Counted from the first letter of the stretch, positions 5,185 to 23,562 are shown. The stretch: 64,000 nucleotides of DNA from an uncultured Acidobacteriota bacterium (GCA_963700145.1 OY969474.1:2464001-2528000); one strand, 5' to 3'. A program made the numbers and translations. The notes: generated by a model from the letters alone, not told the origin.

Positions 5185-5205
5185 GGGTGTCTCCTACTCC
5201 TATTC

Positions 5206-5688
5206 CTAGGGAGCGCTCTCGCTCCGCTCGGGGACCGGCGGGCCGGCCGCGGCCCTCTCCTCCGACTGGCGCTCGATCGGCTCTTCGACGAAGCCGGAGC
5301 GGTCGTCGGCGAGGCGCCAGCTCCGCACCTCGGAGGGCTTGCCGTCGGTCACCGCCACGATCAGGTACGACACCCCCGGCCAGGCGTTCTCGCGGTCGAA
5401 CTCGCTCGGCTGCGCCGGGTGGTCGGGGTGCGAGTGGTAGTAGCCGACGATCTCGAGTCCCGCCTCGCGCGCCGCGCGCTGCGCCGCGAGCACCGTCTCC
5501 GGGCCGATGACGAAGCGGTTGGCGCGGCTCTCCTCCCGCTCGTTGTCGGCCGGCACGATCCGCTGCACCAGCAGACGCTCGCCCTCGGCCTTGCCGAGGA
5601 GGATGCCGCAGCACTCCTCGGGGTAGGCCGCGGCGGCGTGCCGCTCGATGGCGGCCAGGTCGGAAGGCACGAGGACGAGGGCGGTCAT
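5206..5688 (-). CDS. mec: JAB/MPN+ (Mov34, M67) metallopeptidase, Mec-like
   Basis: YPEECCG and YHSHPDHPAQPSEFD JAMM motif; ATG overlaps cysM stop (ATGA). Confidence 0.9.
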   Translation of the reverse strand: MTALVLVPSDLAAIERHAAAAYPEECCGILLGKAEGERLLVQRIVPADNEREESRANRFVIGPETVLAAQRAAREAGLEIVGYYHSHPDHPAQPSEFDRENAWPGVSYLIVAVTDGKPSEVRSWRLADDRSGFVEEPIERQSEERAAAGPPVPERSESAP

Positions 5689-6671
5689 GACGGGCTCGCG
5701 GGCTCCTCCCAGAAGCGCTCGGACAGGTACTTGTCGGCGCCGTCGCAGAGGACCGTGACCAGCGTAGCACCCTCGCCGCCGCCGTCTTCTCCGTCGGCGG
5801 CGAGCCGCGCCGCCAGGCGGAGCGCCGCCGCCACGTTGGCGCCCGACGAGATCCCGGCCAGCACGCCGGCCTCGCGCGCCAGCCGGCGCACCATGGCGTG
5901 CGCCTCCTCGGTCGTCACCTCCCAGGCCTCGTCGGCCAGCGCCGGGTCGTAGATCGGCGGCACGATGGCCGAGGCCATGTGCTTCATCCCCTCGAGGCCG
6001 TGGAAGGCGCTGTCGGGTTCGACCGAGATCAGTCGCACGCCGGGCGCCCGCTCGCGGAGACACCGCCCCACCCCCATGAACGTGCCGCTGGTCCCCAGGC
6101 CGGCGATGAAGTGAGTGAGGCGGCCGCCGGTCTGCGCCCAGATCTCGGGGCCGGTCGAGCGGTAGTGGGCGCCCCAGTTCTCGGGGTTGGAGTACTGGTC
6201 GAGGTAGGCGTAGCGCGCGGGGTCGGCGGCGGCCAGGCGGCGGGCCTCGAGGATGGCGCCGTCGCTGCCGGTCAGCGGGTCGGTGAGGAGCAGCTCGACG
6301 CCGTAGGCGGCGAGGATGCGCTTCCGTTCCGGGCTGGCGTTGGCCGGCAGGCAGAGGGTCACCGGGATGCCGAGCGCGGCACCGATCATGGCGTAGGCGA
6401 TCCCCGTGTTGCCGGAGGTGGAGTCGAGGAGGCGGCGCGGGGCGCCCGGCGCGAGGAGCCCGCGGCGGACCGCGTCCTCGACCATGGCGAGCGCCGGGCG
6501 GTCCTTGACCGAGCCGCCGGGGTTGGCGAGCTCGGCCTTGGCGTAGAGGCGGACGCGCGGCGTCCCGGTCAGCTGCGAGAGGTCGAGGAGCGGGGTGCGG
6601 CCGATGAGGTCGAGCAGCCGGCGCGGCCCGTGGCCACCGGCGGGCGAGGTCTCGTCCTCAACCTGCGTCAT
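5685..6671 (-). CDS. cysM: PLP-dependent cysteine synthase (CysM-like)
   Basis: NPGGSVKDR, STSGNTG, GLGTSGT, GISSGAN motifs; start taken at ATG 6671. Confidence 0.9.
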   Translation of the reverse strand: MTQVEDETSPAGGHGPRRLLDLIGRTPLLDLSQLTGTPRVRLYAKAELANPGGSVKDRPALAMVEDAVRRGLLAPGAPRRLLDSTSGNTGIAYAMIGAALGIPVTLCLPANASPERKRILAAYGVELLLTDPLTGSDGAILEARRLAAADPARYAYLDQYSNPENWGAHYRSTGPEIWAQTGGRLTHFIAGLGTSGTFMGVGRCLRERAPGVRLISVEPDSAFHGLEGMKHMASAIVPPIYDPALADEAWEVTTEEAHAMVRRLAREAGVLAGISSGANVAAALRLAARLAADGEDGGGEGATLVTVLCDGADKYLSERFWEEPASPS

Positions 6672-6873
6672 CGAGAAGAGAGGAACCGGAGAGAGGGAGC
6701 TTCCACCTCCCAAGCTAACAGAGGTCGGCCCGAAGGGCAAGTGACTCGGGGGCCCACCGCCAATTGCCTGGCCGCCCGCGCAGGAAATGTGCGCCCTCTA
6801 CGCATGTTCAAATATCGAGACCCATCTTCTCTTCTTTTAGTGTACGATGATTCTTTCACCTAAAGGAGCCGCT

Positions 6874-7983
6874 ATGACCAAGTCGCGTTTGGTGCAGGCG
6901 CTTGCCGTCGTCCTGTTCTCCGCAACTGGAATCAGTGCCCAAGAGGTTCAGTTCACGCAACGATCGTTAGAGCGGATCGAGGGGAGCTTGCCCGAGAATG
7001 GAGTCGAGTTCTCATCGGTGCTGAAGCTGCCGGCACTTGCGGTCGTTGAGGTTCGACTCCCCACCGGGACGCTCGTTCGCGCCGAGATCGACTACGTGTC
7101 AGGGGATGTATTGGTGCAGAGCCTTGCGGGCGAGTCCGATGAACTGGTGCCTCTCGACTCCGACGATCCTTCCCTACTCGCGGCGCTGCTCGATGCCGTG
7201 GGTGATCCTCTGAGCCCGCGCGAGGAGACGCTGGCTCGCATGCTCGCCTTCGTCACAGCCTACCCATCGGGTGCCGTGATCGATGTCAACTCTGCCAGTG
7301 TGAAACAGGGACCGCGCGAGAAGGTAGTTAGCTCCCTCTGTGCGACTACCGGAAGCCAGCGTTCGGGCACCTTCGATGTCGGGACGAAGACCTATCGCCA
7401 GACGGCAAAGCTTGGACCCTGCTATAACCGCCAAAATCAGTGCATGGGGCGCTGTGGTCCTGGATGCAACGCGCCACCGAACCCCACGTTCCAGGTTTTT
7501 ACGCAGGACTGCCTGAACCATGATCTTTGTACCCTCAAGACCGGAACGATCTTCGGTGAATGCACGGACGAATGGCACGCTGCCGCCGACGATTTCCTGA
7601 GGGGGCGGGATTGCGGCGATCTCGATGGTACTTGGAAGGACAACTTCAATTACGTCTGGAAGCTGGTCCAGGGGCCCATTATCACAGGTACCGTTCAGGG
7701 AGCCGGTAGGGAGGCTCACTGCCGGCCTTGGAATGTCTCAGGGCTCCACACTGGAGACGACGTCTCCCTGGATGGCAACCGGCTCTTTCAGAAGGAGGGC
7801 TGCTGCCGGGCTTTTTCACTCAAGGGCGACATCACGACCTGCAGCAAAGCGAGCGGGACGTGGACAAATGTCTGCAGGGGAAGCGGAACGTGGACTCTGT
7901 CGCGCCAGGGCACCAGTGCCAAGCTTCAGTTCTTTGGGGACGACGGCGAGCCAAGCGCCGGCCCAGGGGCAGTGGAGGAATAG
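6874..7983 (+). CDS. Secreted Cys-rich hypothetical protein with a phospholipase A2-like motif; lower-GC insertion
   Basis: AAGGAG RBS, signal peptide, CMGRCGPGC..DCLNHDLC motif; less GC-biased codons than neighbours. Confidence 0.7.
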   Translation: MTKSRLVQALAVVLFSATGISAQEVQFTQRSLERIEGSLPENGVEFSSVLKLPALAVVEVRLPTGTLVRAEIDYVSGDVLVQSLAGESDELVPLDSDDPSLLAALLDAVGDPLSPREETLARMLAFVTAYPSGAVIDVNSASVKQGPREKVVSSLCATTGSQRSGTFDVGTKTYRQTAKLGPCYNRQNQCMGRCGPGCNAPPNPTFQVFTQDCLNHDLCTLKTGTIFGECTDEWHAAADDFLRGRDCGDLDGTWKDNFNYVWKLVQGPIITGTVQGAGREAHCRPWNVSGLHTGDDVSLDGNRLFQKEGCCRAFSLKGDITTCSKASGTWTNVCRGSGTWTLSRQGTSAKLQFFGDDGEPSAGPGAVEE

Positions 7984-7999
7984 CAGCGCGAAGAACGGC

Positions 8000-8500
8000 T
8001 CAGCCCGTCTTCTTCTCGCCCAGCTCGATCAGCGTCTCCGGCCGCGGCAGCGGCGCCACCAGCGCGGCCTCGACCGCCTCCTCCTCGAGCCCCTGCCGGT
8101 CGGAGGAGAGCCGCCAGGCGCGCGTCTCCACGACCTGCCCGGCCGAGATCGCGGTGAGCAGGTAGCTCATGCCCGGGCGCAGCGTCTCGAGCTCCAGCTC
8201 GCTCGGCGTCGCCGTCCCGCCGGCGCGCGCCAGGTAGTAGCCGACGACCTCCATCCCCAGCGACTGCGCCTCGTGCGCCGCGGCGGCGTGGGTCTCGGCC
8301 GGCACCGGGTCGGCGCCCTGACCTTCGCCGCCGCCGTCGGCCGGCTGCACCGCCAGGATCCGCTCGACGAAGATCTTCTCCAGGCCGTTGCGGTGCGGTC
8401 TGCCGATGAGGACGCCGCAGCACTCGCCGGGGTACGTCATGGCGGCGTGGCGCCCGATGGCGTGGAGGTGAGTGGGCGAGATCACGAGATGGCAGTTCAT
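8000..8500 (-). CDS. Catalytically degenerate JAB/MPN paralog
   Basis: YPGECCGVLIG retained, but YYLARAGGTATPSELE replaces YHSHP..PS..D; otherwise colinear with 5206..5688. Confidence 0.75.
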   Translation of the reverse strand: MNCHLVISPTHLHAIGRHAAMTYPGECCGVLIGRPHRNGLEKIFVERILAVQPADGGGEGQGADPVPAETHAAAAHEAQSLGMEVVGYYLARAGGTATPSELELETLRPGMSYLLTAISAGQVVETRAWRLSSDRQGLEEEAVEAALVAPLPRPETLIELGEKKTG

Positions 8501-8616
8501 ACCCGGTTGCAACCCCTCTCTCGGAGCGTCGTGGCCGGTCGGGCCACGCGATTACGCGTCGCCCCGGCCGCACTGCAAGAGCAGGGCCAGAGGCGTTTTC
8601 CTCTATCCTGCGCGGC

Positions 8617-9273
8617 ATGGACGACAGCGTCCGCACCGGGGGCGAGCGGGTGCCGCCCGGCCAGTACGTCACCGAGAAGTGGCCGGTCCTCACCTACGGC
8701 CCGGAGCCGCACGTCGATCCAAGCGAGTGGACGCTGCGCCTCTCCGGCCTGGTCGAGGAGGAGCTGGCGTGGAGGTGGGAGGAGTTCCAAGCGCTGCCGC
8801 GGGTGCGCGTCACGGCGGACTTCCACTGCGTCACCCGCTTCTCCACCCTCGACAACGCCTGGGAGGGTGTCGCCACCCGCGAGCTGCTGCGCCGGGCGCG
8901 CGTGCGGCCCGAGGCATCGCACGTCCTCGTCCACTGCCACGGCGGCTACACCACCAACCTCCCGCTCGAGGACTTCCTCTCCGAGCGCGCGCTGGTGGCC
9001 GACACCTGGCGCGGCCAGCCGCTAGCGGTCGAGCACGGCGGCCCGGCGCGGCTCGTCGTCCCCCACCTCTACGCCTGGAAGAGCGCCAAGTGGGTCAGCG
9101 GCTTCGAGCTCCTCGACGCCGACCGCCGCGGCTTCTGGGAGGAGAACGGCTACCACACCTACGGCGACCCCTGGCGCGAGGAGCGCTTCAGCTTCCAGGA
9201 AGTCAAAGAGGCCTACCAGGTCCGGCGGCGGGCGAAGGAGCTGGGGTTGGTGCCGGGCCGACCTCCTCAATGA
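8617..9273 (+). CDS. Sulfite oxidase-like molybdopterin oxidoreductase
   Basis: PPGQY, DFHCVTRFS, EHGGPARLVVP, WKSAKW, GFWEENGYH motifs. Confidence 0.9.
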   Translation: MDDSVRTGGERVPPGQYVTEKWPVLTYGPEPHVDPSEWTLRLSGLVEEELAWRWEEFQALPRVRVTADFHCVTRFSTLDNAWEGVATRELLRRARVRPEASHVLVHCHGGYTTNLPLEDFLSERALVADTWRGQPLAVEHGGPARLVVPHLYAWKSAKWVSGFELLDADRRGFWEENGYHTYGDPWREERFSFQEVKEAYQVRRRAKELGLVPGRPPQ

Positions 9274-9484
9274 CGTCGCTCTCCGCCGGCGCGAGGGTGA
9301 TCGTCAGCGGCCGGCCCACGGCCGCGGCTTCCTTCAAGAGGCGCAAGGACACCTCGAAGGACGGGCGTGCTCTCGGCAGGCGGTAGAAGCGGGCCGACTC
9401 GTAGAACATGACCTCGACGTGATCCGCCCCCGGCGGCTCGCGAACGTGAGCCACCGTCATCTCGCGCCGACTCATCCGCTCCAT
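9203..9484 (-). CDS. Small protein resembling the pro-domain of protein-glutaminase
   Basis: ATG one base after the glutaminase stop; VEVMFYESARFYRL..LLKEAAAVGRPLTITL pattern parallels the upstream gene's N-terminus. Confidence 0.6.
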   Translation of the reverse strand: MERMSRREMTVAHVREPPGADHVEVMFYESARFYRLPRARPSFEVSLRLLKEAAAVGRPLTITLAPAESDVIEEVGPAPTPAPSPAAGPGRPL

Positions 9485-9485
9485 C

Positions 9486-10442
9486 CTACGGGCAGGTGAC
9501 CCCGTTCTTGTACCCGATCAGCGTGCCGTTCGTCGCCGTGTACGACGGATCCGTGGTGAACGTCGTGGTCGAGCCGAAGGCCGGCGTGTAGGCCGAGCCC
9601 GACTGGATCGAGTACTTCGACACTCTGGCGTGCGGATGGCAGGCGGGGTTCTCCTGCGCGGCCAGCCAACTGGTCAGCAGCACCGGCTTGTCGAACATGC
9701 CGGGATCGATGACCATCGCCAGCTCGGCGCTGATGCCCAGCTTTCTGATGTTGATGCGCACCCGCACGAGGGGGGCGACGTGGTACCACCAGGTCACGCA
9801 GCAGCCGCCCCATTTGTTCGCCTGCACCGAGAGCCGGTCGAGGTTGTCGACGGCAAAGCTGAACACCTTCTCGCAGCAGTAGCCGTACTGGGTGGTGATG
9901 ATCCGGCGCATCTCGTGAGCGCGCGCGTAGCAACCGTCGATCACGTACTGGAACGGGATGCAGTTCGGCACGCCGAACGGCCCCGGCAGGTGGCACGACT
10001 GTTGAGCGCAGAAGTCGAAGATCGCCTTGGCCGTCGCGTAGTTCGGGACGACGCGCTTGCAGAGCAGGAAGACCGGGATCTTCAGATAGTGCTCGACGAT
10101 GTTGAAGGTCATCGGATCGATCTTCGAGAGGTCGATGTCATAGATCTTCTCGGGTTTCTCGACGTAGGTCCGGCGGCGTTGGAACTCCTCCAGCTCCTCG
10201 CCGCGGAGGACGTCGATACGCCCGATGAAGCCCCGCCCCTCGTCGAGCTGGGCCTTCACCGGAGCGCCCTTCTCGAAGGCCTCCCCGAGCCGGGCCGCCG
10301 AGGCCTCGGCGGTCCTGGCGGTGGCCGACCGGAAGGTGTAGATCCGCTGCTTCTCGTTGAAGAGATACTCGGTCTCCTGCTCGCCCCTGCCCCGGCGAAT
10401 GGCGGCGATCGTCAGGAACTCCTCGCGCGGTTCCCTGGTCAT
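9486..10442 (-). CDS. Protein-glutamine glutaminase (protein deamidase) family with pro-domain
   Basis: CIPFQYVIDGCYARAHEM, CCVTWWYHVAP and VIDP match the Chryseobacterium protein-glutaminase Cys-His-Asp motifs; no clear signal peptide. Confidence 0.85.
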   Translation of the reverse strand: MTREPREEFLTIAAIRRGRGEQETEYLFNEKQRIYTFRSATARTAEASAARLGEAFEKGAPVKAQLDEGRGFIGRIDVLRGEELEEFQRRRTYVEKPEKIYDIDLSKIDPMTFNIVEHYLKIPVFLLCKRVVPNYATAKAIFDFCAQQSCHLPGPFGVPNCIPFQYVIDGCYARAHEMRRIITTQYGYCCEKVFSFAVDNLDRLSVQANKWGGCCVTWWYHVAPLVRVRINIRKLGISAELAMVIDPGMFDKPVLLTSWLAAQENPACHPHARVSKYSIQSGSAYTPAFGSTTTFTTDPSYTATNGTLIGYKNGVTCP

Positions 10443-11392: not shown

Positions 11393-12190
11393 ATGCCACC
11401 GACCCGTCACGACCGCCTCGTCCATGGCGTCCTGGTCTTCATCCTCGCCTGCGCCGCCGGACTCGCCGGCGGCATTGCCGCGCCGCTCGCCGGCGCGGAG
11501 GTGGCGCCGGCCGCCGTCGAGGTGCGCGGCACCGTCGTCGGGCCCGGCGGCGAGCCGGCGGCGGGGGCGGTGGTCGCCGTCGTCGCCACGCGGCGCAGCG
11601 AGCCGTCGGCGGTGGTGGTCGCCGGCGCCGACGGGGGGTTCGCGGCGACGGTCCCCGCCGGCACCTACGCTTTGACCGCCACTCACCCCCAGTGGGCGGC
11701 CGCCTACTCGCCGCCGGCGGAGGCGAGCGGCAAGGTGGTGCGCGACCTGCGCCTCCTGGCGCCGGCCGAGGGGGTTCTCCTCGAAGGCGGCGTCCGCGAC
11801 TCGACGGGGGCCGCCCTCGCCGGCGCGGAGGTGCACTGCATGCGCACCATCTCCCAGGGCGACCTCTTCGTCGGCCGTGCCGACGGCGCCGGACGCTACG
11901 CGCTGCGCCTGCCCTCCTCGCCCTACTACGGCTGCCACGCGGCGGCCGACGGGCTGCGCTCGCCGCTCGTCGAGATCGACGTCGCCGCCGGCGGGGTGCG
12001 GCAGCGGCAGGACTTGGTGATCCGCCGGCCGGCGCCCGCGCCGCAGGCGGTGGTCGACTGGATCCGCGCTCAGGCGATCCCGCTGCTGATGACGCGCGCC
12101 GGGCCGCTGCAACACCACCAACTGCTAGTCGTCTGTCCATCCCCACGAGTGAGGAGGCTCACATGGTCGACCTCGATGCCCCCGCAGTAG
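11393..12190 (+). pseudogene. Truncated duplicate of the esterase 5' half (signal peptide plus two carboxypeptidase-regulatory-like domains)
   Basis: 11409..12104 near-identical to 21386..22075; homology stops before the esterase domain. Confidence 0.8.
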
Positions 12191-13386
12191 CCTTCGTTGC
12201 GCAGCAGCTCCTGGACGTCGTGAGGTCCGGCCGGGTCAGCACGCCGGCGCCCGTGCCGGAGTCGACGGGACTGGAGTCAGGGCTGGAGTTGGGAAAGCTG
12301 GAATCGGCGACGCCGAAGCCCAGCGGCCCGAAGCCGCCCGCCGAGCGAGTCGCGCTCCTCGTGGATGCCATCCAGCGCGGCCGGCAAACCGCGAGGCCGG
12401 AGGACCGACCTGACCCGGACCTGGCGGCGGAGGTCATCAAGGGTGCCCGCTCCGGGCTCGCCAAGGCGCAGGAGTCGAACCCGATGCTCACCCGGCGCGA
12501 GGAGGTCGGCCTCGAGGCCGTCATCCTCACCGACGGCACACGGCCGAGCCTCACCGTACGCGACGGGTTCGTCGACCTCCAGGCGCCCGACATCGGCGAC
12601 TGGGGCATCGCCCTACGGCACTTCGAAGACCCGATCCGCCGGCTGATCGCCTCCGTCGGTCGCGTCAACGTACCGGTCGGTCAGGGTTTCGTGGGCACCT
12701 GTTTCGTCGTCGCCGGCGATCTCGTGGCGACCAATCGACACGTGCTCGAGGAGATCGCCACCGAGGACCCCGAGGGCACCTGGACGCTCAAGTTCCCCGG
12801 CCGAACCACCGTCGATTTCATCGGCGAGGACGGTGCTGCGAGCGCCACGCGGATTCCGGTGAAGGGCGTCGTGTTTGCCGGGCTCAACCCCATCAACCGT
12901 CAGGTCCACTTTCCCAACCTAGACCTTGCCCTGTTGCGGGTGGACGCGAGCCGAGTCGCCGACTTCCCTTCAGCCGTCCAGCTCGAGAAGGACCTCGCAC
13001 CGCTGGGGCCGTCCCGCGAACTCTACGCTGTCGGCTTCCCGGCGCGTCCCCAGACCCACTTCGGTACCTCCACGCCGCCGCCGGGGACCGAGACCGTGGA
13101 GGTGATGAGCTCGGTCTTCGGTTGGAAGTTCGGCATCAAGAAGCTGGCGCCCGGCGCCGCGGTGGCCGTCCCCGGACAGCTGCCGACGGACACGAAGAAA
13201 TGGGTCTTCACACACAACGCCTCGACCCTCGGCGGCAACTCGGGCTCCTGCGTTGTCGACCTCGGCATCGATGGCGGACGCGTCATCGGAATCCACTTCG
13301 CCGGCGAGTCCAGGGCGCAGAATTGGGCGCACTCCTTTGCGGCCGTGAAGGGGAGTATCAATAGCTTCGGGCTAACGTATGTGTAG
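12163..13386 (+). CDS. Trypsin-like serine protease (intact triad)
   Basis: GGAGG RBS; ATNRHV, LDLALL, STLGGNSGS; N-terminal LEAVIL..RPSL motif. Confidence 0.87.
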   Translation: MVDLDAPAVAFVAQQLLDVVRSGRVSTPAPVPESTGLESGLELGKLESATPKPSGPKPPAERVALLVDAIQRGRQTARPEDRPDPDLAAEVIKGARSGLAKAQESNPMLTRREEVGLEAVILTDGTRPSLTVRDGFVDLQAPDIGDWGIALRHFEDPIRRLIASVGRVNVPVGQGFVGTCFVVAGDLVATNRHVLEEIATEDPEGTWTLKFPGRTTVDFIGEDGAASATRIPVKGVVFAGLNPINRQVHFPNLDLALLRVDASRVADFPSAVQLEKDLAPLGPSRELYAVGFPARPQTHFGTSTPPPGTETVEVMSSVFGWKFGIKKLAPGAAVAVPGQLPTDTKKWVFTHNASTLGGNSGSCVVDLGIDGGRVIGIHFAGESRAQNWAHSFAAVKGSINSFGLTYV

Positions 13387-13470
13387 GCGACGCGAGGCTG
13401 AGCCTGCGCCAATCCCGTCGCGGCTTCGGCAGTCGGCGACCCCGGGACGGGCTGCTATTTCTCGGGGGCG

Positions 13471-16212
13471 TCAGCGGGGTGGACGGTGGGCGGCTGTAAT
13501 GTCCAGCCCCACGTGATCGCGCAGCAGCTGGGCCAGGCGGCCGGGTTGGTGCCCGAACTGCCGCGTCAGCAGCTCCACCAGCTCCGGCACTCTCGACGTT
13601 CCGAGGCCTGCCGCGCTCAGCCACTCGCGGATGGCGTGTTGGTCCATAGGACCCAGGCGGAGGCGAGTGACCCGCTTGAACTCCCGATCGGCAAGCTGGG
13701 CAAACTGTAGGTCGCGGGCCGCGAGCACGACGGTGAAGCTTCCGGCGGCCCAGCTGCTACGGGTCAGAAGCGGCAGGAACAACGACCTCAGCCAGTCCAC
13801 CACCCCTGCCGGCGCTTCGTCCAAGCCGTCAAAGAATAGCACCGCTCCGTCTGCGCCTTCTGCTAGCTGGTGGACCAGCTCGAACGTCAAGAGATAGTCG
13901 TTTGCCTCGTTACTCTCTCGCAGATCGACATTGAGACCTACCGCAATTGCTCGCACGGCGTCGAAGACGTTCGTCCCTTCCAGACGCACCCAGCAATACG
14001 GCACTTCGCGGTCATCGCAGAGACGAGTGAAATGGCGCAGCAGGGTGGTCTTCCCAATACCTGCGTCTCCCTCGATCGCGAGCACCTGCAATCCTTTGCC
14101 ATCCAACATCTTCAAGAAGACACCAACCTCAGCTTCACGATCCAGAAAGATCTCTTCTGAGCGAAGCGACGGCGCCGAACGCGACATGAACTCATGAGGC
14201 GAATCGAAGCGGCCGATCTCGTAGTCCAGGCCCTCGTTCGCGGCGCCGGCGTCGACCGCAAAGTAGCCTTCGTGCCGGTCTCCCCACCGGTCCTCCATTT
14301 CGCTCATCCTGGCTGACGAGGCGAGGTGCGTGGCGACCAGGGCAGATGCATCGTTGCGATACAGACCGATGAGGACCTCGTCCTCGCGCAGCTCTCGCGT
14401 GAGGTCGTTGAACGTGCGACCGTGAAGCCGCCGACCGGTCTCCCGTATCCGCTCCGGCGGATTGAAGAAGTTCGATACGGCCCGAGTTCGTGGCGATGCG
14501 GGCTCGCTCAGCATGGGATCTTCGAAAACCCCCGCGCCGGCCAACAGTGGACGATCGACGTGCGACCAGAGCGCAATCGCCGCTCCCAACTTCAGGCCCC
14601 GCGGACCTGGACGGTAGACGCCCCCGTAGTGCACGCCCAAGACCTCGCCGGTCTCCAGGTCGACCACCGGCGCGCCGCCGGTCCCGCCTGTCGTGAAGCA
14701 GTTGTGAGTTAGCTGGTCGCCCTCTACCGGACCGCCGAAGCGTTCCGGCGCCAGGCCCTGCGCGGACATCGGGGTCGATTCAACGGCTACGATTTCCCCG
14801 AGGAGCAGACGGAGGATCCCCAACTCCCCTTCCATCACTCGCGCCAGGACGATCGGATCGATTCTGCTGTCCAACATCGGGTAGCCGAGGAGGTAGACCT
14901 TGCGACCCACCAAGTCCGCGGGTCGTCGTGTGGTGGCACGCAGCGGCCGGACCAGGCTTGTTGCTTGATCTCCTACCTCCAGCACGGCCACGCCACTGCC
15001 ATCAATGGCCGCGTTCGTGACCTCGAAGCGAGGCCTTCCGGCCTCTACTTCCATGAGTTCCTCGCTTTCAACACTTTCTGTGGGCCCCTCCGCCGGCCAC
15101 TGGTTATGTCCGACCGCGAGCTCTACGAAGACCCGGAGCTCGGGCTTCAGCTGCCACTTTCCCTCGTTATCCGCCACCAGGATGGGTCCCACGGTCGGCC
15201 AATGCGTCAGCACCACCGATCTTCCCACGAAGAAGCCAGGGCCGGACCATCGGGTCTTGCCCTCCCCCACGATCCTGAGCAGGCAAACGGCCTGGGCTGT
15301 GCTCGCGATCTGGGCTCGGTGCTGCTCGAGCACCCGCCATTCCGGCGGTGCTGGCCCGAAACTCCTCCCGCTCCACATCGGTAGTGCCGGCGTCATGCGG
15401 AGCCAGTACTCCTGGATCGCGCTGGCGAGCGCCGCCGTCTCGGGGTGATCCCCGGCGGCGGCCTCTAGCACGGCCGGTACTTGGTTGACGACCCAAGCCG
15501 TCTCCAGCACCCGTTGCCAGCGCGCTGCGGGCTGCCTCTCCGCCGCCAAGCCCGCCACGTCGACGCCGGCCTTCTTGGCGATTCGCCGCGTGGCAGCGGC
15601 GGTCGGGTAGAGGCTCACCAAGGCATCCCGCAGCTCGGCGAGCGCGGGTATCTGGTCCGCCAGAAACACCGTACTTGTCTCGGCTTCCTTGACCGCGGCG
15701 GCGCGGCCCGCGAGGTCCCGCCGCATGGCGACGAACCAGCGTTCGGCCATAGGCGCCGGCCCCTCGCCACGCTCGGTTCGAGCGAGCCAGCTCTCCGCCC
15801 GCTGTGGGTCGATGAAGCTCAGTGCCGTCAGCTGCTGGGCCTCGGCGAGACCTGGACGCTCCTGCCATGGCGCGCCGCGCTCGCCGTACTCCCAGAGCAA
15901 CCGAGCCACGTCCCGCACCCTGGCGAGGGTGTACTCCTTGACCAACCGTTGTAACAGCACGTCGCGAAGGTCGGGATCCATGACGTAGAGACCATCGTCG
16001 ACCTCGGAGCAGAGCGGCGAGAGGAGGAGCTGCGCCTCCGCGGTATAAGGGAGGACGACGGGCGGATCGAGGAAGTAGTTGATGCGCAGCAGATGCACCA
16101 GGTCCGGGTTCAGCACGACCGGCAGCGCGGCGTGGCAGGCGAGCATCACTAGCTCCTCTCCACGCTGGTGCGCGAAGACGTTCAGCCGAGCCTCGGCTTC
16201 TTCCCGGCTCAA
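13471..16212 (-). CDS. Multidomain effector of MoxR-vWA system: vWA-associated helical domain, EAD1-like domain, inactive trypsin, unknown domain and STAND/AAA ATPase
   Basis: LACHAALPVVLNPDL..LLLSPLC N-domain; LRDALVSLYP..W..VLE EAD-like segment; trypsin with GGTGGAP instead of GNSGSP; FLDREAE..GDAGIGKTT..FFDGLD. Confidence 0.75.
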   Translation of the reverse strand: MSREEAEARLNVFAHQRGEELVMLACHAALPVVLNPDLVHLLRINYFLDPPVVLPYTAEAQLLLSPLCSEVDDGLYVMDPDLRDVLLQRLVKEYTLARVRDVARLLWEYGERGAPWQERPGLAEAQQLTALSFIDPQRAESWLARTERGEGPAPMAERWFVAMRRDLAGRAAAVKEAETSTVFLADQIPALAELRDALVSLYPTAAATRRIAKKAGVDVAGLAAERQPAARWQRVLETAWVVNQVPAVLEAAAGDHPETAALASAIQEYWLRMTPALPMWSGRSFGPAPPEWRVLEQHRAQIASTAQAVCLLRIVGEGKTRWSGPGFFVGRSVVLTHWPTVGPILVADNEGKWQLKPELRVFVELAVGHNQWPAEGPTESVESEELMEVEAGRPRFEVTNAAIDGSGVAVLEVGDQATSLVRPLRATTRRPADLVGRKVYLLGYPMLDSRIDPIVLARVMEGELGILRLLLGEIVAVESTPMSAQGLAPERFGGPVEGDQLTHNCFTTGGTGGAPVVDLETGEVLGVHYGGVYRPGPRGLKLGAAIALWSHVDRPLLAGAGVFEDPMLSEPASPRTRAVSNFFNPPERIRETGRRLHGRTFNDLTRELREDEVLIGLYRNDASALVATHLASSARMSEMEDRWGDRHEGYFAVDAGAANEGLDYEIGRFDSPHEFMSRSAPSLRSEEIFLDREAEVGVFLKMLDGKGLQVLAIEGDAGIGKTTLLRHFTRLCDDREVPYCWVRLEGTNVFDAVRAIAVGLNVDLRESNEANDYLLTFELVHQLAEGADGAVLFFDGLDEAPAGVVDWLRSLFLPLLTRSSWAAGSFTVVLAARDLQFAQLADREFKRVTRLRLGPMDQHAIREWLSAAGLGTSRVPELVELLTRQFGHQPGRLAQLLRDHVGLDITAAHRPPR

Positions 16213-16231
16213 TACGCCTCCAGCCGTGTCC

Positions 16232-17458
16232 TCAGGCGTTCGCCGCAGTCAACGGCACCGCCGCCGGCAGTGCTTTCTCCACCGGGAACGGTTGTCCCCG
16301 CAGCACGTTCACCGCGCGGTGCATGCCATCGCGTTCCATGGAGAACATCGGCAGGTGCCGGGCCAGCTGGGCAGCCGTGGTCCCCTTCCAGGCCGCCGCC
16401 GGGAGCGGATTCAGCCACACGATCCGGCTGGTGAACGCCCGCAGGCCCTTGAGAAACGCCACTGTATCGAGCAGCCGCAGCAGGTCGTAGCGGCCGCGGG
16501 CGGCGCCGCCGTCGCTGAGGATGACCACCGCTGCGCCCTCGGCATGGCTTGCGAGGACGGCCGCAATCGGCTGCGGGCTGAGCAGCTCCTGGTCCTCGAA
16601 CAGCTCGCCGCGGCCGAGGACCGGCACCTCCGCCAGCACGGGATCGAGGCTGGGGAACAGTGTGCCACTCAACCTTTCCAGCAGCGCGGGGTCGGTTCCC
16701 TCCAGGGGAGCATCGTGGAAGTAATAGAGGCCTACCTGGCGCAACCTGCCAGCCTGGGCAATCGATCGGCAGACCATGTCGACGTAAGAGTGGAATGGCG
16801 CCATCGAGCCCTGCCTGTCCACCAGCATGAGCAGCTCCGCGCGGTTGCGCCGCCGCGGCCGCAGCATCGGCGGCGATGCCACTCCCTGGCGCGACCGCTG
16901 CTGCACGGTTGCCGCGACGTCGAGCTCGGTCGCCGGCCCCTCCCGTATGGGCCAGCGCAGTCGCCGCCAGGCCTGCGCCACGGTCCGGTAGTCGACGGGA
17001 TACTGCGGCAGGAAGGTATGCGCGAAAGGCAGCGCCGGCCGCTCGCCCAAGGTCATGGGCGGTAACCGCCCGGCGGTGGCGGTCGCCGGTGTTGCCGCCG
17101 TTTCGACCTCCTCTGGCTGCACCGGAGGAACGTTGCCGACTTCTAGCGGTATGACTTGCTCGTCGGCGTCCGGGCCCGGCGCCGCATCATCGAACTGCGC
17201 GGTTTGCAAACCGAAGCTCCAGTCGGAGACCACGTGCTGATCGAAGAGGGCCGCCGCCACCGCCCGCTCGTCTAGTGACTTGGCCCACAGCGCGCAGCAA
17301 ACCTCGCGCAGCTCGCGCCGCGACGACCAACCGAACCCGGCCCGCAAGGCGTCGCGCAGCGCTTCGTATTCCTCCGGGCCCAGCGGGAAGCCACGCCGCA
17401 CGAGCTGTTGGAACAAGGTCCAGACGAAGACCTCCGGCCCCTCTTCCGGGTCGCTCAC
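16232..17458 (-). CDS. vWA-domain protein (CoxE-like) of MoxR system
   Basis: ELDVAATV, LVDRQGSMAPF (MIDAS), ILSDGGAARG, WLNPLP; ATG overlaps moxR stop. Confidence 0.88.
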   Translation of the reverse strand: MSDPEEGPEVFVWTLFQQLVRRGFPLGPEEYEALRDALRAGFGWSSRRELREVCCALWAKSLDERAVAAALFDQHVVSDWSFGLQTAQFDDAAPGPDADEQVIPLEVGNVPPVQPEEVETAATPATATAGRLPPMTLGERPALPFAHTFLPQYPVDYRTVAQAWRRLRWPIREGPATELDVAATVQQRSRQGVASPPMLRPRRRNRAELLMLVDRQGSMAPFHSYVDMVCRSIAQAGRLRQVGLYYFHDAPLEGTDPALLERLSGTLFPSLDPVLAEVPVLGRGELFEDQELLSPQPIAAVLASHAEGAAVVILSDGGAARGRYDLLRLLDTVAFLKGLRAFTSRIVWLNPLPAAAWKGTTAAQLARHLPMFSMERDGMHRAVNVLRGQPFPVEKALPAAVPLTAANA

Positions 17459-18465
17459 TCGAGCGCTCTCTCCCGGCGCGCCCGCTCCTGGTCGGCCCGG
17501 TCCTTCAGCACGGCCGCTGTCTCCCGGCGCGCCCGCTCCTGGTCGGCCCGGTCCTTTAGCACGGCCTCGAGGTTGGGCAGCTCTTCGAGCTGCTCGGGCT
17601 TGGTCCCCTTTGCCTGCTCATGGGACACCCAGTCGATCAGCTCGGTTAGGCCTGGCTTCTTGCTCAGGTCCTTCTCGCGCAGCTGGCGGATGAGCTCTAC
17701 CGCCTTCTTCGAGAGCGCCTCTTTGGTGACACCATGCAAGCGGAGGATGCGCTCGAGCTCCTGGCGGCTCCGCGGGAACTCTACGTAGTGGTATACGCAG
17801 CGTCGCAGGAACGCCGGCGGCAGCGGCTTCTCCTCGTTGTGGGTAATGATCACGATGGGGCGCAGGTCGCCGGCGCGGTGGCCCAGCCCAGGAGCCTCGG
17901 GCACCTCGAACTCCATGCGGTCGAGCTCCCAGAGCAGATCGTTGGGGAAGTCGAGGTCGGCCTTGTCGATCTCGTCGATGAGCACTACCGAGCGACGGCC
18001 GTGCTCGGCGCGGGCGATGGCCCGTCCGAGCGGGCCGAGGGTCACGTAGTTGGCAGGCAGGCGCGCCAGCGGCTCCCCGTTCTCACTCTTGGGGCCCTCG
18101 AGCCCCAACTGTCAGTCGTAGAGCCGCCGCACCGCGTCGTAGGAATACAGCAGGTCCTGCGCGCGGCTGGTGGACTTGACGTAGGCCACCTCGAGCGGCA
18201 TCCCGAAGGCGTAGGCCACGGAGTGGGCCAGCCGCGTCTTGCCGCAGCCCGGCTCACCTTGCAGCAGCAGCGGTCTGCCCAGCGCGATGCCGAGGTCCAC
18301 CACCCGAGCCAAGTCCGCGCTCGGCTCATACACCTCGGGGAAGGCCACTCGGCTGGGCCAGTTGGCCGACAGCACCGGTCCAACGCCCGTGGCCTCGATA
18401 TTCCGCTGCGGCGGCACCTTCTTGACCGCCTCTGCATAACTCAACGACAGATCGATGGACCGCAT
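17455..18465 (-). pseudogene. moxR: MoxR-family AAA+ ATPase with one in-frame TGA (18112-18114)
   Basis: GEPGCGKT Walker A, LLYSYDAVRRLYD*QLG, VLIDEIDKAD, FPNDLL, FLRRC; both ORF-track pieces are in the same frame. Confidence 0.85.
17469..17566. repeat. 51-bp-period tandem duplication in the moxR 3' end
   Basis: 17469..17515 and 17520..17566 encode AVLKDRADQERARRE twice. Confidence 0.9.
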
Positions 18466-18467
18466 CG

Positions 18468-19499
18468 TCACCCTCCAGCAAGGTCGAGCTCGTCCAGAGC
18501 CTGCCCCAGCGCGTCCTGGGTACGGTTCGAGGTCAACAGGTCTCGGTGATACTCCAGCCGCTCGTAAAGCTCGTCGACTGGCAAGTCGTCCTCTGCATAG
18601 CCAGTGACGATCATCGCCGCCCAGCGCTGGATGATGGCTTCCTGCCAGTCGAGCTGGCGCGCGATGTCGGTCACCCAGTGGGCGACGTCGATCCGGGTGA
18701 AGGCGGGCGCCGGCAACTGCGTCATGCCCGTCGGCGCCCTTGTCGCGTCCGGCATGCCGAAGATCACCACCAGGTGCCGCGGTGGTGCGTTGGCGAACCC
18801 GGCGGCGATGCCCTGCCAGAGGGCAGCGGCATCCTCCTCTTGCGCTACGTGGGCCGCCCAGATCACGTGCTTTCTCACCAGCAGGTCCCGCACCTTGAGC
18901 GCCTTCTCTGCGGCTAGCGCCGCCGTGGTGTGGAGCGGGTCGACCTCCAGGGGCGGCCGGTTGGGAGCCACCTCGTCGCGGCCCCACGTCCGTAGGTCCG
19001 CGCCTCGGTACCTCACCCGCCTCTCACAAAGGTAGCGCAGCAGCCGTGCGGTCCGGCTCGGCACCACGAACCCGCTCACCGCCGGCTGCACCGGCAACAT
19101 GCTGATGCACATCAGCACCGGGCGGCGGAGATCGAAGAGATGGAGCTGTGCCACCTCCGCGGGGTGGACACGTCTCGGGGTGATGCCGCTCTGCGCGTCC
19201 TCGAGGGCACGGCGAATGGTCAGCAGCTCTCCTTGCAGCTCGGTTCCCCGCACGGTGGGCACTGCGTTCTCGATCAGCTGCAGCAGCCGCCACTCCCCCC
19301 CAGGGCCGAAACTCTCCTCCAGCTGCGCCACCAGGATCATCAGGTCGCCGCGGGCGTTCTGCTCGTTGCGGCTGAAGTAGGCGGCCTGGGGAATGCCGAT
19401 GCAGAGCGCCGTGCGGCCCGACCCCTCCCCTTCGATTCCAACCAACGGCACCCGCATCAGCGCTTCGATCAGGCTGAGACGCAGGTCGTCTGGGATCAT
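18468..19499 (-). CDS. Effector-associated domain (EAD-like) fused to probable inactive STAND (iSTAND-like) domain
   Basis: N-terminal ~100 aa homologous to the N-terminus of 19519..20634; position directly upstream of moxR; C-domain call is tentative. Confidence 0.62.
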   Translation of the reverse strand: MIPDDLRLSLIEALMRVPLVGIEGEGSGRTALCIGIPQAAYFSRNEQNARGDLMILVAQLEESFGPGGEWRLLQLIENAVPTVRGTELQGELLTIRRALEDAQSGITPRRVHPAEVAQLHLFDLRRPVLMCISMLPVQPAVSGFVVPSRTARLLRYLCERRVRYRGADLRTWGRDEVAPNRPPLEVDPLHTTAALAAEKALKVRDLLVRKHVIWAAHVAQEEDAAALWQGIAAGFANAPPRHLVVIFGMPDATRAPTGMTQLPAPAFTRIDVAHWVTDIARQLDWQEAIIQRWAAMIVTGYAEDDLPVDELYERLEYHRDLLTSNRTQDALGQALDELDLAGG

Positions 19500-19518
19500 G
19501 CAGGAAACCGAAACGCTC

Positions 19519-20634
19519 TCACGCCCAACCCTGCGCCCGGGCGATCTCTTCGCGGGCCACTGCCGGCAGGTGGTCGAGGATGTCCTGCATGGCGATCCCC
19601 TCGTTGTGGTACTTCACGACGCCGCTCATGCCCGCCTCGCCCTTGTAGAGCTCCGGCCTCACTTCCTTGAAGCCGTGGTGGAGGGCGACGACCTGCCAGC
19701 TGTCGTCGAGCACCGGCGATCCCGACGAGCCGAGCTCGGTGTCGGTCAGGTAGCGCAGCTGGTATGTCTGGTCGCCGGTGCCGACGTAAAAGTTGTTGCG
19801 GATGGCGAAGCTGAGCGCGCCGCCGCGGGGGCACTGCACGATGTTGAGCCGCGTCCCCACGGAGAGGCTGGTCCGGCCGCGTGAAAGTGGAAGATGTCGC
19901 CGTGGCGCCAGCGTGGGATCGTCTTGCAGCCGCAGCAATGCATAGTCGAGCGTCCTGTCGCTGGCCAGCACCGCCGCCGCCTGGACGTCGACGTGGTCGT
20001 GGCCCTCGCGGTAGTAGTCGAACCAGGCGGCGGTGCTCTCCCCTTGCAGCCGGAAATCGGCGGCGTTTGCCGGCGGCTCGTTGCGGTCCCGCGCCTCGAC
20101 GACGTGATGATTGGTGAGCAGCAGCCGCGGCGCCACCAGCCAGCCGGTGCCGAAGCCGGCGCCGCGCGCCCTGCGCCCATCGACGTAACGCGGTACCAGC
20201 AAGCGCGCCACTCGGCGGCCGGTCTCTTGCGCCTGCTCGATGAAGCTCACGGTCACCCATTCGCCCGTGCCGCCGAAGATGAGCCGCTCCGGCTCGGCGG
20301 GAAGCTCGGGCAGCGGCTGCTCGCCGCCATAGGCCGCTTCGGCTTGCTGTTGGATCTCGGCGAGCTGGCGGCCGAGGTCGGTCCCCCTGGTGATCCGCCA
20401 CGCGTTGTGGACGACGATCACCACCGGACGCTCGCCGTTGTCCAGCCTACCCAGGCCGTCCAGTTGGCCGATCAGATTGGTCAGGTCGACGAACTGATTG
20501 TCGGTGCGATTGAGCGCGCCGCGCACGTTAGCGGGAACACCGTCCAGCAGGGCGCTGCGGCCGGCACGTTCGTCGGTGCCGGGCACATCCATCAGGACGT
20601 CGACCAATCGAGCCTTGAGGAACCTGTCGAGCAT
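19519..20634 (-). CDS. EAD-like domain plus active trypsin-like protease
   Basis: GTGWLV, LLTNHHV, LDYALL, TDTELGSSGSPV, ALHH. Confidence 0.85.
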   Translation of the reverse strand: MLDRFLKARLVDVLMDVPGTDERAGRSALLDGVPANVRGALNRTDNQFVDLTNLIGQLDGLGRLDNGERPVVIVVHNAWRITRGTDLGRQLAEIQQQAEAAYGGEQPLPELPAEPERLIFGGTGEWVTVSFIEQAQETGRRVARLLVPRYVDGRRARGAGFGTGWLVAPRLLLTNHHVVEARDRNEPPANAADFRLQGESTAAWFDYYREGHDHVDVQAAAVLASDRTLDYALLRLQDDPTLAPRRHLPLSRGRTSLSVGTRLNIVQCPRGGALSFAIRNNFYVGTGDQTYQLRYLTDTELGSSGSPVLDDSWQVVALHHGFKEVRPELYKGEAGMSGVVKYHNEGIAMQDILDHLPAVAREEIARAQGWA

Positions 20635-20801
20635 TCGCTAAGGGCGCGCCCAGGGGTGCGGCAATTAAGATCTCTGCAGGCGTGAACAACTCGAATTCTA
20701 CCCCAAGCACAAGTCTATAGGCCCCGCTGCCCTTCGGCGATCTCGAGGAGCGGCCGGGCTCGGCGTGGTCGTAGAGTGGAAATAGCCGCAAAAGCCTGAC
20801 T

Positions 20802-21299
20802 TCAGGAGCGGATCCCTCCGAACGGCCCCGCCACCATCGGCGTCGCCAGCAGGAAGACGGCCGCGAACGCTCCCTTGAGGAGGCGCGACGGTCGCCGCCG
20901 AAAGTAGGCGGGCGTGAACTCGACGGCGCCGATGCAGCTGGCCGTCAGCAAGCCGTCCACCCACGTGTGCTCCAGGTCGATGCGCCGGCGCTGCGAGTCG
21001 GCCGCCCAGTAGCCGCGCACCGCGTCCTCGTCGAGCCAGTCCGCAGGCGCGCGTCCGCCGATAGCTCGGCGAGCCCCTCGAAGTGCGGGATCGCCAGTAT
21101 CAACGCCCGGCCGCGCATCGCCTGCGGCAGCGGCACCGTCGCGCGCAGCCGATAGACGCACGGCGCCGCCGGCAGGCGGTCGTGGAAGTGCGACGGGATG
21201 GCGACGGCGGAGGTCCGGCGGTCGGGCGCGACCAGCACCCAGCTCCGGACGGCGGCTGATCGAGGGTGAGCCCAGGAGGAGCGCAGGGATCACTGTCAC
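20802..21299 (-). pseudogene. Fragmented gene remnant of unknown function
   Basis: Protein-like stretches in two frames (VAIPSHF..YRLRATVPLP..LILAIPHFEGLAEL; DWLDEDAVRGYW..IDLEHTWV). Confidence 0.3.
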
Positions 21300-21360
21300 G
21301 GGAAGGCGCCAATCTACGGCAACTCAAGCCGTCGATATGATGCGGCCGTCCGCGAACTCC

Positions 21361-23243
21361 ATGAAGGCCGTCGTTTACAGCCGCTACGACCGCCTCGTCC
21401 GTCGCGCCCGGGCCTTCGTCCTCGCGTGCGCCGCCGTCATCGCCGGTGCCGTGGCCGCGCCGGTCGGCGCGGAGGTGGCGCCGGCCGCCGAGGTTCGCGG
21501 CACCGTCATCGGGCCCGGGGGCGAGCCGGCGGCGGGGGCGGTGGTCGCCGTCGTCGCCACGCGGCGCAGCGAGCCGTCGGCGGTGGTGGTGGCCGGCGCC
21601 GACGGGGCGTTCGCGGCGACGGTCCCCGCCGGCACCTACGCCCTGACCGCCACCCATCCGCAGTGGACGGCCGCCTGGTCGCCGCCGGCGGAGGCGAGCG
21701 GCAAGGTGGTTCGCGACCTGCGCCTCCTCGCGCCGGCCGAGGGAGTCCTCCTCGAAGGCGACGTCCGCGACTCGACGGGGGCCGCCCTCGCCGGCGCGGA
21801 GGTGCACTGCATGCGCACGATCTCCCAGGGCGACCTCTTCGTCGGCCGCGCCGACGGCGCCGGGCGCTACGCGCTGCGCCTGCCGTCCTCGCCCTACTAC
21901 GGCTGTCACGCGGCAGCCGACGGGCTGCGCTCGCCGCTCGTCGAGATCGACGTCGACGTCGCCGCCGGCGCGGTCCGGCGGGACCTGCTGATCCGCCGGC
22001 CGGCGCCCGCGCCGCAGGCGGTGGTCGACTGGATCCGCGAGCAGGCGATCCCGCTGCTGACGACGCGCGCCGGGCACGCTTCGCCGACCGGGCGCACCTG
22101 CGCGAGGTCGTCGGCGACGCCCGGGTGGTGGCCCTCGGCGAGGCCACGCACGGCACGCGCGAGTTCTTCCACCTCAAGCACCGCCTCTTCGAGTACCTCG
22201 TCTCCGAGCTCGGCTTCAGCGTCTTCGCCATCGAGGCGAGCTGGCCCGAGTCCGAGGCGGTGGACGAGTACGTGCGGACGGGCCGGGGGGGACCCCGCCG
22301 AGGCGCTCGCCGGGCTGTACATCTGGCCCTGGAACACCGAGGAGGTGCTCGACCTCATCCGCTGGATGCGGCAATGGAACGCCGTGCCGGGGCACCGGCA
22401 GGTACGCTTCTACGGCTTCGACGTGAAGGCCGCCGCGGTGTCGGCCGAGCGCCTGGCGGCGCGGCTGCAGGAGATCGACCCGGCGCTCGCGGCGGAGGTG
22501 GGGCCCGCCCTCGTCCGGCTCGCCGCGGCCGAGCGCGCCTCGCCCGAGCTCGCCGACGCCGACGAGGCGGAGTACCAGGCCGCCGTGGCCGGCGTCGCCG
22601 CGGTGCTGCCGCGGATCGCCGCGCGGCTGCCGCCGGCGTCCGCCGCCGACCGGCGGGCGATCGTCGACCGGCACTACGTGCAGGCGCTCGAGCAGTACAC
22701 GCGGCTGCGCGGCCCCGGGGCGGCGGGCCGGTGCGCGACCGCGGCATGGCCGACAACGTCCGCTGGATCGCCTACGTCGCCGAGCCCGGGTCCCGCATCG
22801 TCGTCTGGGCGCACAACTTTCACGTCAACGTCTACGAGGAGGGCTCGCTGCCCTGGATGGGCCACCACCTCGAGGCGGCGCTGGGCAAGGACTACCTGCC
22901 GGTGGGGTTCCTCTTCCACCACGGCTCGTTCCAGGCGATGGATCGCACCGGCGGCCCCCGCGGGCTCAAGGAGTTCACGGTCGGTCCGCCCGCGGCGGGC
23001 ACGCTCGAGGACACCTTCGAGCGCGCCGGCTGGCCGCTCTGCCTCCTCGACCTGCGCCGCCTGCCGGCGGAGGGCCCGGTCGCCGAGTGGCTCCGCGCCC
23101 CTCAGCTGACGCGCGCGGTCGGCTCCTCCTTCAGCGGCGAGGCCGACATGGCGATGGAGCTGGCGCTGCCCGAGGTGTACGAGGCGGTGGTCTACGTCGA
23201 GGCGACGACGCGCGCCCGGCCGAACCCGCCGGTGCAGCCGTAG
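21361..23243 (+). pseudogene. Erythromycin esterase-family protein with N-terminal carboxypeptidase-regulatory-like domains; three apparent frameshifts (~22078, ~22290, ~22730), possibly read errors
   Basis: VALGEATHGTREFF, FAIEASW, WNTEEV, RDRGMADNV and WAHNFHV spread over alternating frames. Confidence 0.85.
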
Positions 23244-23335
23244 GACGGGGCGGAACTCACGTAGCGCGGCTCCGGGGGGTTCCCGGAGAGGCTGGAGACG
23301 CGGTCGGAACGCTGGCGGATAAGGGAGCGCGACAT

Positions 23336-23562
23336 CCGGATACATCCGCGAGCCGCCCGGATACATCCGCGGCGCGTCCGGATAGATCCGCGGGCCGTCC
23401 GGATACATCCGCCGCGCTTCCGGACATATCCGCGCCACTTCCGGATAGATCCGCGAGCCGTCCGGATACATCCGCGGCGCGTCCGGATATGTCCCCGCGC
23501 TTCCGGATACATCCGCCGCGCTTCCGGATACATCCCCAGCCTTCCGGGCACATCTCCAGGCC
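23336..23562. repeat. 20-21-bp tandem array (~11 units) with near-palindromic core CCGGATACATCCG and variable 7-8-bp linkers
   Basis: ccggatacatccgcgagccgc / ccggatacatccgcggcgcgt / ccggatagatccgcgggccgt / ccggatacatccgccgcgctt etc. Confidence 0.9.

Follow-up and report, generated by a model that had tools for sequence, protein, structure and literature searches.

A probable iSTAND2-type MoxR-vWA ternary conflict system with an interrupted MoxR gene in an uncultured Acidobacteriota bacterium

A cluster of six genes in an uncultured Acidobacteriota bacterium, combining a MoxR-type ATPase and a vWA protein with three trypsin-like domains, raises the question of whether it represents a new design of bacterial conflict system or a known one, and whether this copy still works. 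The cluster lies in a 64,000-nt stretch of DNA, referred to as the window, which has a G+C content of ~70% and corresponds to positions 2,464,001-2,528,000 of a single 5.46-Mb contig (GCA_963700145.1, OY969474.1). The initial annotation had read it as a protease-centered MoxR-vWA system coupled through effector-associated domains (EADs) and possibly of undescribed architecture, and had proposed profile searches and a survey of homologous gene neighborhoods. Judged from sequence, the locus probably represents an iSTAND2-type MoxR-vWA ternary conflict (anti-invader) system that was acquired horizontally. As a member of this previously described class it is ordinary, and it adds no new principle. 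Provided that this class assignment is right, we consider it somewhat likelier that the present copy is inactive, i.e., disabled or decaying, than that it works.

All six open reading frames (ORFs) on the original parts list were found (Table 1). Five of them, here called A to E, follow one another on the minus strand (13471-20634) and encode an EAD-trypsin protein (A), the third component (B), the MoxR ATPase (C), the vWA protein (D), and a 913-residue effector (E), with spacings of 19, 2, -4 (a GTGA start/stop overlap), and 19 nt. The sixth, F, encodes a free-standing trypsin on the plus strand and converges on E, the two ends being 84 nt apart. Genes, order, and coordinates of the proposed five-gene coupled operon thus hold up, with the reservation that its third gene is broken by an in-frame TGA that had been overlooked. 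The TTG start codon of E is backed by its homologs. C carries the Walker A motif GEPGCGKT and the Walker B motif VVLIDE, the N terminus of A has a weak EAD2/EAD5/EAD8-like match in Pfam, and B has no Pfam match even at an E value of 10. PADLOC returned nothing for B, D, and E, and NCBIfam gave only subthreshold matches to the proteins of the locus, among them SAV_2336_NTERM for D (E 1.7e-11, below the cut-off). A promoter and terminator scan reported no sites.

The conserved core of the system consists of four genes in a fixed order: a third component, MoxR, a CoxE-type vWA protein, and a protein headed by the helical vWA-L domain and ending in a variable tail. We fetched related loci with the N-terminal domain of E, obtaining 24 from genomes, of which 23 are informative (L010 is a 775-bp contig), and 18 from metagenomes, of which 17 are distinct (L038 repeats L006) and 16 informative (L036 starts at vWA-L). 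The order from the B-family gene through MoxR and vWA to the vWA-L protein recurs in 23/23 informative genome loci, with a B-family ORF 5' of MoxR every time. Likewise, vWA lies upstream of vWA-L in all 16 informative metagenome loci, directly so in 15 and after a gap of ~750 nt in L048, and MoxR is seen in the 14 whose contigs reach far enough. The neighborhood survey therefore bears out the co-occurrence of these genes. A single-protein scan of the metagenome contigs gave no match.

The domain that heads the effector, which the initial annotation had described as helical and vWA-associated, is vWA-L. Its sequence, the first ~175 residues, is 43-72% identical among E homologs, while the tails beyond it are entirely different. 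It always comes just after vWA; of the 12 loci whose starts are clear, 10 show the vWA and vWA-L genes overlapping by ATGA, and the two are fused into a single ORF in Frankia sp. R82 (L013) and Dactylosporangium sp. NBC_01737 (L018), i.e., in 2 of the 23 loci. The tails of the 23 vWA-L proteins include NACHT (nine proteins), FtsK (eight), TIR (five), and FGE-sulfatase (two), with 67 Pfam families overall. At the other end of the core, the heads of the 24 B-family proteins comprise EAD1 (seven), trypsin (six), TIR (two), EAD10 (two), and EAD9 (one). Further architectures were met in which vWA-L heads a protein with a Pfam-iSTAND domain, EAD2, and a weak zincin-like match (P0038), or proteins with PNP and a C-terminal bDLD3 (P0030 and L074), indicating that tails are swapped freely.

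Gene A precedes the core and carries the other copy of the EAD of B, placed on a trypsin with an intact catalytic triad. Homology links the N termini of A and B, which share 34% identity over 106 amino acids (E 2e-9), and a genome-wide search found this type of EAD exactly twice, in A and in B, so that the paired EAD-like domains proposed for the two proteins are real. Full-length A homologs with the same EAD pairing adjoin the core in five related loci (L004, L005, L015, L035, and L039).

The description of printed systems given here follows the accessible parts of two papers, PMC7159879 and PMC8195603. MoxR-vWA ternary systems, as set out in the former, have VMAP, iSTAND, FtsH, or beta-propeller third components, with EADs as the coupling principle. 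Our locus shows MoxR followed by vWA, a third component 5' of them with variable heads, and a variable effector tail on the vWA side; gene order, third component, and tails all agree with the proposal of a ternary conflict system coupled by EADs. The latter paper introduced the name vWA-L for the helical linker between vWA and effectors, and it places vWA-L plus effectors in a separate gene beside vWA in iSTAND2, in TERNS3, and in a minority of iSTAND systems. It further lists bDLD3, EAD1, or EAD8 as the heads of iSTAND2; the linked signaling domain, in its account, is usually a trypsin that shares this EAD.

The closest likeness is to iSTAND2 (Kaur, Iyer, Burroughs, and Aravind, eLife 2021, PMC8195603), which has the same order of third component, MoxR, and vWA, a separate gene for vWA-L and effectors after vWA, and a third component with an N-terminal EAD whose neighbor combines the same EAD with a trypsin, as in B and A. 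The tails described there, FtsK, TIR, FGS, receiver, and STAND, likewise occur in our family. In addition, the iSTAND2 module was found through its fusion to bDLD3 upstream of MoxR-vWA (PMC8195603). When this route was followed in a sample of 151 Micromonosporaceae genomes, a hidden Markov model (HMM) of the B core matched ORFs bearing bDLD3, with E values of 5e-46 (L077) and 1.2e-37 (L066/L078), and MoxR follows each of them. Since the B core thus appears fused to bDLD3 ahead of MoxR, which is the paper's own route of discovery, we file B as EAD-iSTAND2. A Walker A motif is present in none of the 24 B-family cores. Differences from the printed class are that the EAD of A and B resembles EAD2, EAD5, and EAD8, whereas the paper names bDLD3, EAD1, and EAD8; that the STAND kinship of the core is not reproduced here; that the host class otherwise lacks the system in our sample; and that MoxR is interrupted.

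Two other printed types share the logic of the locus. In a canonical Pfam-iSTAND locus (L032) we found the same four-gene layout, with a MoxR 51% and a vWA-L 35% identical to those of the window; in this type, vWA is CoxE-like, the heads are TIR, trypsin, or EAD, and the tails include FGS, TIR, and caspase. In contrast, B and its 23 relatives are missed by PF19995, and in the vWA tree the iSTAND locus sits on a long branch as an outlier. VMAP ternary systems (PMC7159879) similarly have a third component headed by an EAD or peptidase, then MoxR, then vWA with a variable tail, including a live trypsin on the side of the third component and an inactive one in the effector position, as seen here. 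They differ in having VMAP-C (PF20028), which gave no match in the whole genome even at an E value of 10 and none among the 24 B-family members; membership in VMAP was rejected on this ground. VMAP-type N-terminal motifs, as printed, were not seen by eye in the MoxR protein C. Of the proposed profile searches, those for EADs were productive, yielding EAD1 in E and a weak EAD on A, while iSTAND and VMAP-C models match no B-family member. We find no support for calling the architecture unusual or possibly undescribed, as an EAD-trypsin tied to the third component together with a dead trypsin in the effector is the printed norm (PMC8195603 and PMC7159879).

The genes A to F sit in a 9.3-kb cassette bounded on both sides by a direct repeat of ~700 bp. 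Inside the cassette, the G+C fraction falls to 0.66-0.68, compared with 0.70-0.75 around it. The repeat copies (11404-12104 and 21381-22075) share blocks of 76-94% identity, and their likeness stops abruptly at 12104/22075. In 200 other sampled genomes of the host class, four of the same family included, vWA-L had no match. Because of the drop in G+C, the flanking repeat, and the absence of vWA-L from the class sample, the sequence fits horizontal acquisition of the cassette. In the vWA tree, the window clusters with two metagenome loci (L035 and L037) and two Actinoplanes loci (support 99/100), making Actinoplanes its nearest named relatives.

We turn to the effector and the trypsins. Aligning the trypsin region of E plus 17 relatives to F, A, and three A homologs separated live from dead enzymes. 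His, Asp, and Ser are kept in 5/5 sequences of the A family plus F, so that the two trypsins predicted to be live, A and F, indeed have these residues at the catalytic columns, as judged by alignment. The E family has Ser in 0/18, His at the canonical column in 0/18, and Asp in 1/18 sequences. E itself has none of the three, the replacements being Ser to Gly, His to Pro, and Asp to Gly, and the V8 protease motif GGNSGSPV aligns to GGTGGAPV. The trypsin of the effector is thus as dead as had been supposed, and loss of the triad across the 18-member family marks the pseudo-trypsin as a family trait and not a local mutation.

Apart from its Trypsin_2 match (34.5 bits), E contains an EAD1-like domain, as the initial annotation had held (PF19955, 29 bits against a cut-off of 24.2). 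No second EAD1 was found genome-wide; E has the sole copy, and EAD1 is left without a partner to recruit. The C terminus is a STAND ATPase with intact Walker A, again as predicted: GDAGIGKT and the Walker B motif VLFFDG are present, and NACHT scores just above its cut-off (26.9 versus 26.7 bits). Bacterial NACHT antiphage proteins (Kibby et al., bioRxiv 10.1101/2022.07.19.500537, accessible parts) resemble E in this NACHT-like NTPase with intact Walker motifs, and F in turn matches a PADLOC model filed under "nacht." E differs from them in that its NTPase lacks sensor repeats and is tethered to a vWA-L anchor, and in that it has no PADLOC match. Compared with its three closest tail relatives, P0002 (58% identity), P0003 (56%), and P0019, all of which carry TIR, E has no TIR; in the aligned P0002 and P0003, this domain sits between the pseudo-trypsin and the pre-STAND region.

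The stretch of ~90 residues at ~14230-14490 that had been left unassigned proves to be a real, mobile domain. Its consensus reads YxNPP...GR.L...GLY.N...VA.HL.S..R..E.E...GYYAV, and it occurs in 69 representative proteins at E <=1e-3 (17 at <=1e-10), many of them stand-alone proteins of 83-130 amino acids. None of 37 members had a convincing Pfam match (two were at chance level, E ~0.007), and a PDB profile search found no relative. The domain is likewise found at the ends of large conflict proteins, and TIR_2 is present in seven of the eight large carriers. One carrier, a Polaromonas protein named after the vWA N-terminal family, suggests a further ternary-system tail. The profile of the domain is absent from the 201 Micromonosporaceae genomes searched, and a word-indexed search with residues 560-913 of E returned E itself only. 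An Atlas model of a stand-alone member has a predicted local distance difference test score (pLDDT) of 0.55, and its structural neighbors were disregarded. One tentative and on balance unlikely idea is that the small domain may be an undescribed TIR-associated module gating a TIR-made nucleotide signal to the STAND switch, which would make E an NLR-like hub; stand-alone copies might then serve as regulators or sponges, and the pseudo-protease of E as bait for live trypsins.

As to MoxR, the TGA at codon 118 is the single internal stop in its frame, and the core genes are accordingly not all intact in this assembly. The 23 homologs read at this position have A, S, T, or V. TGA is also the stop codon of all five minus-strand genes and therefore an ordinary stop at codon 118 as well; recoding, including selenocysteine, was rejected in view of both observations. 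Both halves of the protein are 50-74% identical to homologs and keep Walker A and B. In the nonconserved MoxR tail, 17 residues occur twice owing to a tandem duplication of 51 bp (96% identity). Contigs from a public soil sequencing run (X1) align with the cassette, identity being >=99% for 22 of 23 pieces. They differ from the window in gene B by a 3-base gap (19017-19020) and by GC>CA (19401-19402), owing to either strain variation or the assemblies; the matches did not demonstrate coverage of the TGA. Three other runs (X2-X4) share a short conserved MoxR stretch and nothing more.

Several observations weigh against assigning the locus to iSTAND2, most of them concerning B. The Pfam iSTAND model (PF19995) matches none of the 24 family members, and hhalign of the B family against a 20-sequence iSTAND profile gave an E value of 0.03-0.07 with colinear motifs, a comparison that is not significant and that does not reproduce the predicted kinship of the B core with STAND NTPases. 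In two family members (L007 and L009), TIR is fused straight to the core, a kind of fusion that PMC8195603 associates most often with TERNS3. Like iSTAND2, TERNS3 is printed as having vWA-L in a gene of its own; it entered our comparison by its description only, and the terms iSTAND2 and TERNS3 both occur in one paper alone (PMC8195603) in the literature searched. B might accordingly belong to TERNS3 or to an unnamed sister class, in which case the locus would still be a ternary system with a separate vWA-L effector gene. We hold this to be quite improbable, since the fusion of the B core to bDLD3 before MoxR in Micromonosporaceae is printed, in the accessible parts of that paper, for iSTAND2 only, and since an EAD-coupled trypsin in the adjoining gene is the iSTAND2 pattern described there; the nearest clusters of B in an Atlas feature search carry iSTAND as well (score 0.92, a lead only). 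A PDB profile search with the B family gave nothing meaningful. Far more remote, and highly improbable, is a housekeeping role in metal-cluster insertion, with MoxR and vWA as a chaperone pair of the CoxD/CoxE type amid unrelated neighbors. D does match VWA_CoxE, and PMC7159879 derives the conflict systems from CoxD-CoxE; however, the pair is strictly linked to variable EAD, TIR, trypsin, NACHT, and FtsK partners in all related loci, the island is absent from the 200 sampled genomes of the class, and the scanned ORFs of cassette and flanks include no dehydrogenase or metalloenzyme gene.

Further points on the adverse side concern the state of this copy and the experimental record of the class. 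Apart from the stop, MoxR is well conserved, with intact motifs, so that the break is recent or an error; the TGA is known from the assembly. The literature searched shows no bench test of any member of the iSTAND2 or TERNS3 classes, its bench evidence for MoxR-vWA systems being one 2026 preprint which, in its accessible parts, deals with the beta-propeller class. The system could be intact and working, in which case the TGA would be a minority allele or stem from a mistake in the assembly or consensus, an explanation that we regard as rather unlikely. It would agree with the conserved MoxR halves, which show no further break, and with a neighboring esterase gene that needs at least two frame changes and may point to local assembly errors. 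On the other hand, TGA in place of a sense codon resembles a base substitution and not an indel, and long-read errors are mostly indels. In addition, contigs of the independent-looking run X1 fit the cassette bar two substitutions and the 3-base gap (TGA cover not shown), and TGA is the normal stop of every gene in the operon. We favor an inactive copy, since MoxR is cut by the TGA, TIR is missing from E, and EAD1 is orphaned.

The remaining alternative, likewise quite improbable, concerns F, which the initial annotation had included in the system: F might form a separate NACHT-plus-protease defense pair with the C-terminal STAND of E on a vWA-L anchor, with F in place of A as the executing protease. 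F matches the PADLOC model PDLC03010, known to us by its filing under "nacht," over almost the whole profile (E 5.6e-38), with residues 91-404 aligned to positions 61-376 of 378. In addition, F and the STAND-coding end of E converge within the same island. Yet no F homolog was found within 10 kb in any of 40 related loci (0/23 from genomes and 0/17 distinct ones from metagenomes), nine of which have NACHT tails; F has no EAD by Pfam; and its other relatives in the phylum sample (6/301 genomes) are trypsin-NucA fusions. From its absence in these 40 loci we conclude that F does not belong to the conserved part of the system, contrary to what had been proposed. A link between F and the STAND end of E is possible, one to which conservation lends no support. 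The nearest paralog of F in the genome is such a fusion, a 915-amino-acid Trypsin_2 plus Endonuclease_NS (NucA) protein on the minus strand at 4270-7014 of locus L059 (G000:C1:4088000-4100000); it adjoins a 1356-amino-acid protein with an SLT domain and resembles printed trypsin-NucA conflict systems.

How might a system of the iSTAND2 kind operate when intact? We infer all mechanistic steps from the printed model. B would sense the invader and hold trypsin A by EAD-EAD pairing, while vWA would hold E through vWA-L. Once a threshold is passed, MoxR would spend ATP to remodel the complex, upon which trypsin A could cleave or free the tail of E. The pseudo-trypsin may bind peptides or work as a dominant-negative module, and oligomerization of the STAND core would be the output.

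Table 1. Features of the window discussed in the text (positions counted from its first nucleotide).
Feature	Position	Strand	Basis
Left direct-repeat copy: truncated 5' part of a CarboxypepD_reg gene	11404..12104	+	Pfam CarboxypepD_reg E 4.1e-16
Inserted cassette (island) with F, E, D, C, B, and A	12105..21380		Lower G+C, bounding direct repeat copies
F: stand-alone trypsin-like serine peptidase, 407 aa, triad intact, convergent with E	12163..13386	+	Trypsin_2 E 5.1e-12
E: effector, 913 aa; vWA-L, EAD1, pseudo-trypsin, small domain, STAND NTPase	13471..16212	-	Pfam, homologs
E residues 689-913: STAND (NACHT-like) NTPase core, no repeat sensor behind	13474..14148	-	Pfam, motifs
E residues ~578-667: small mobile domain, ~90 aa	14212..14481	-	Profile family
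E residues ~300-545: trypsin fold without catalytic His, Asp, Ser	14578..15315	-	Pfam, alignments
E residues 192-269: EAD1	15406..15639	-	PF19955, 29 bits
E residues 1-175: vWA-L (helical linker/anchor domain)	15688..16212	-	Conservation, vWA fusion; no Pfam model
D: CoxE-type vWA protein, 408 aa	16232..17458	-	VWA_CoxE E 1.6e-9, family alignment
C: MoxR-type AAA+ ATPase, 336 codons, interrupted	17455..18465	-	AAA_5 E 5.8e-11
51-bp tandem duplication in MoxR tail	17464..17565	-	Sequence comparison
In-frame TGA, codon 118 of MoxR (RRLYD*QLG)	18112..18114	-	Translation
B: third component, 343 aa; EAD (~1-105) and iSTAND2-like core (~108-343)	18468..19499	-	Position 5' of MoxR
A: EAD (residues 1-110) and active-looking trypsin (~159-320), 371 aa	19519..20634	-	Trypsin_2 E 3.3e-20
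Right direct-repeat copy: 5' part of full CarboxypepD_reg and erythromycin-esterase-like gene	21381..22075	+	Sequence comparison, Pfam

Several features of the flanks and of the remaining genome may be added. The CarboxypepD_reg plus erythromycin-esterase-like gene at 21337-23243 is readable only with at least two frame switches and is either a pseudogene or affected by local assembly errors. Directly 3' of it lie ~10 tandem 21-bp units (TCCGGATACATCCGCG-like; 23309-23540). A 559-amino-acid WD40 beta-propeller protein (25318-26997, minus strand) and a 318-amino-acid protein with a Gln_deamidase_2 domain (9486-10442, minus strand) show no visible link to the system. The same genome has a second MoxR-vWA system on the minus strand at about 5213-10362 of locus L089 (G000:C1:1214000-1232000), which is made up of a 450-amino-acid protein with an N-terminal TIR, a 303-amino-acid MoxR that is 41% identical to C, and a 965-amino-acid protein with VWA_CoxE and a C-terminal OmpA domain. 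It has no match to the B-core or iSTAND HMMs.

Few of the immune or apoptosis-like devices predicted in bacteria are as elaborate as the ternary systems, whose adaptor domains and pseudo-enzymes parallel death-domain signaling in animals. The present locus offers a compact example of six genes from beyond the usual host groups and a clean definition of a small TIR-linked domain for which there is no family model. It also provides a natural case of apparent decay, visible as a nonsense codon in MoxR, a lost TIR, and an orphan EAD1. Its intact sister operons, those of Actinoplanes (L004 and L005) and the metagenome locus L035, are good material for a first functional test.

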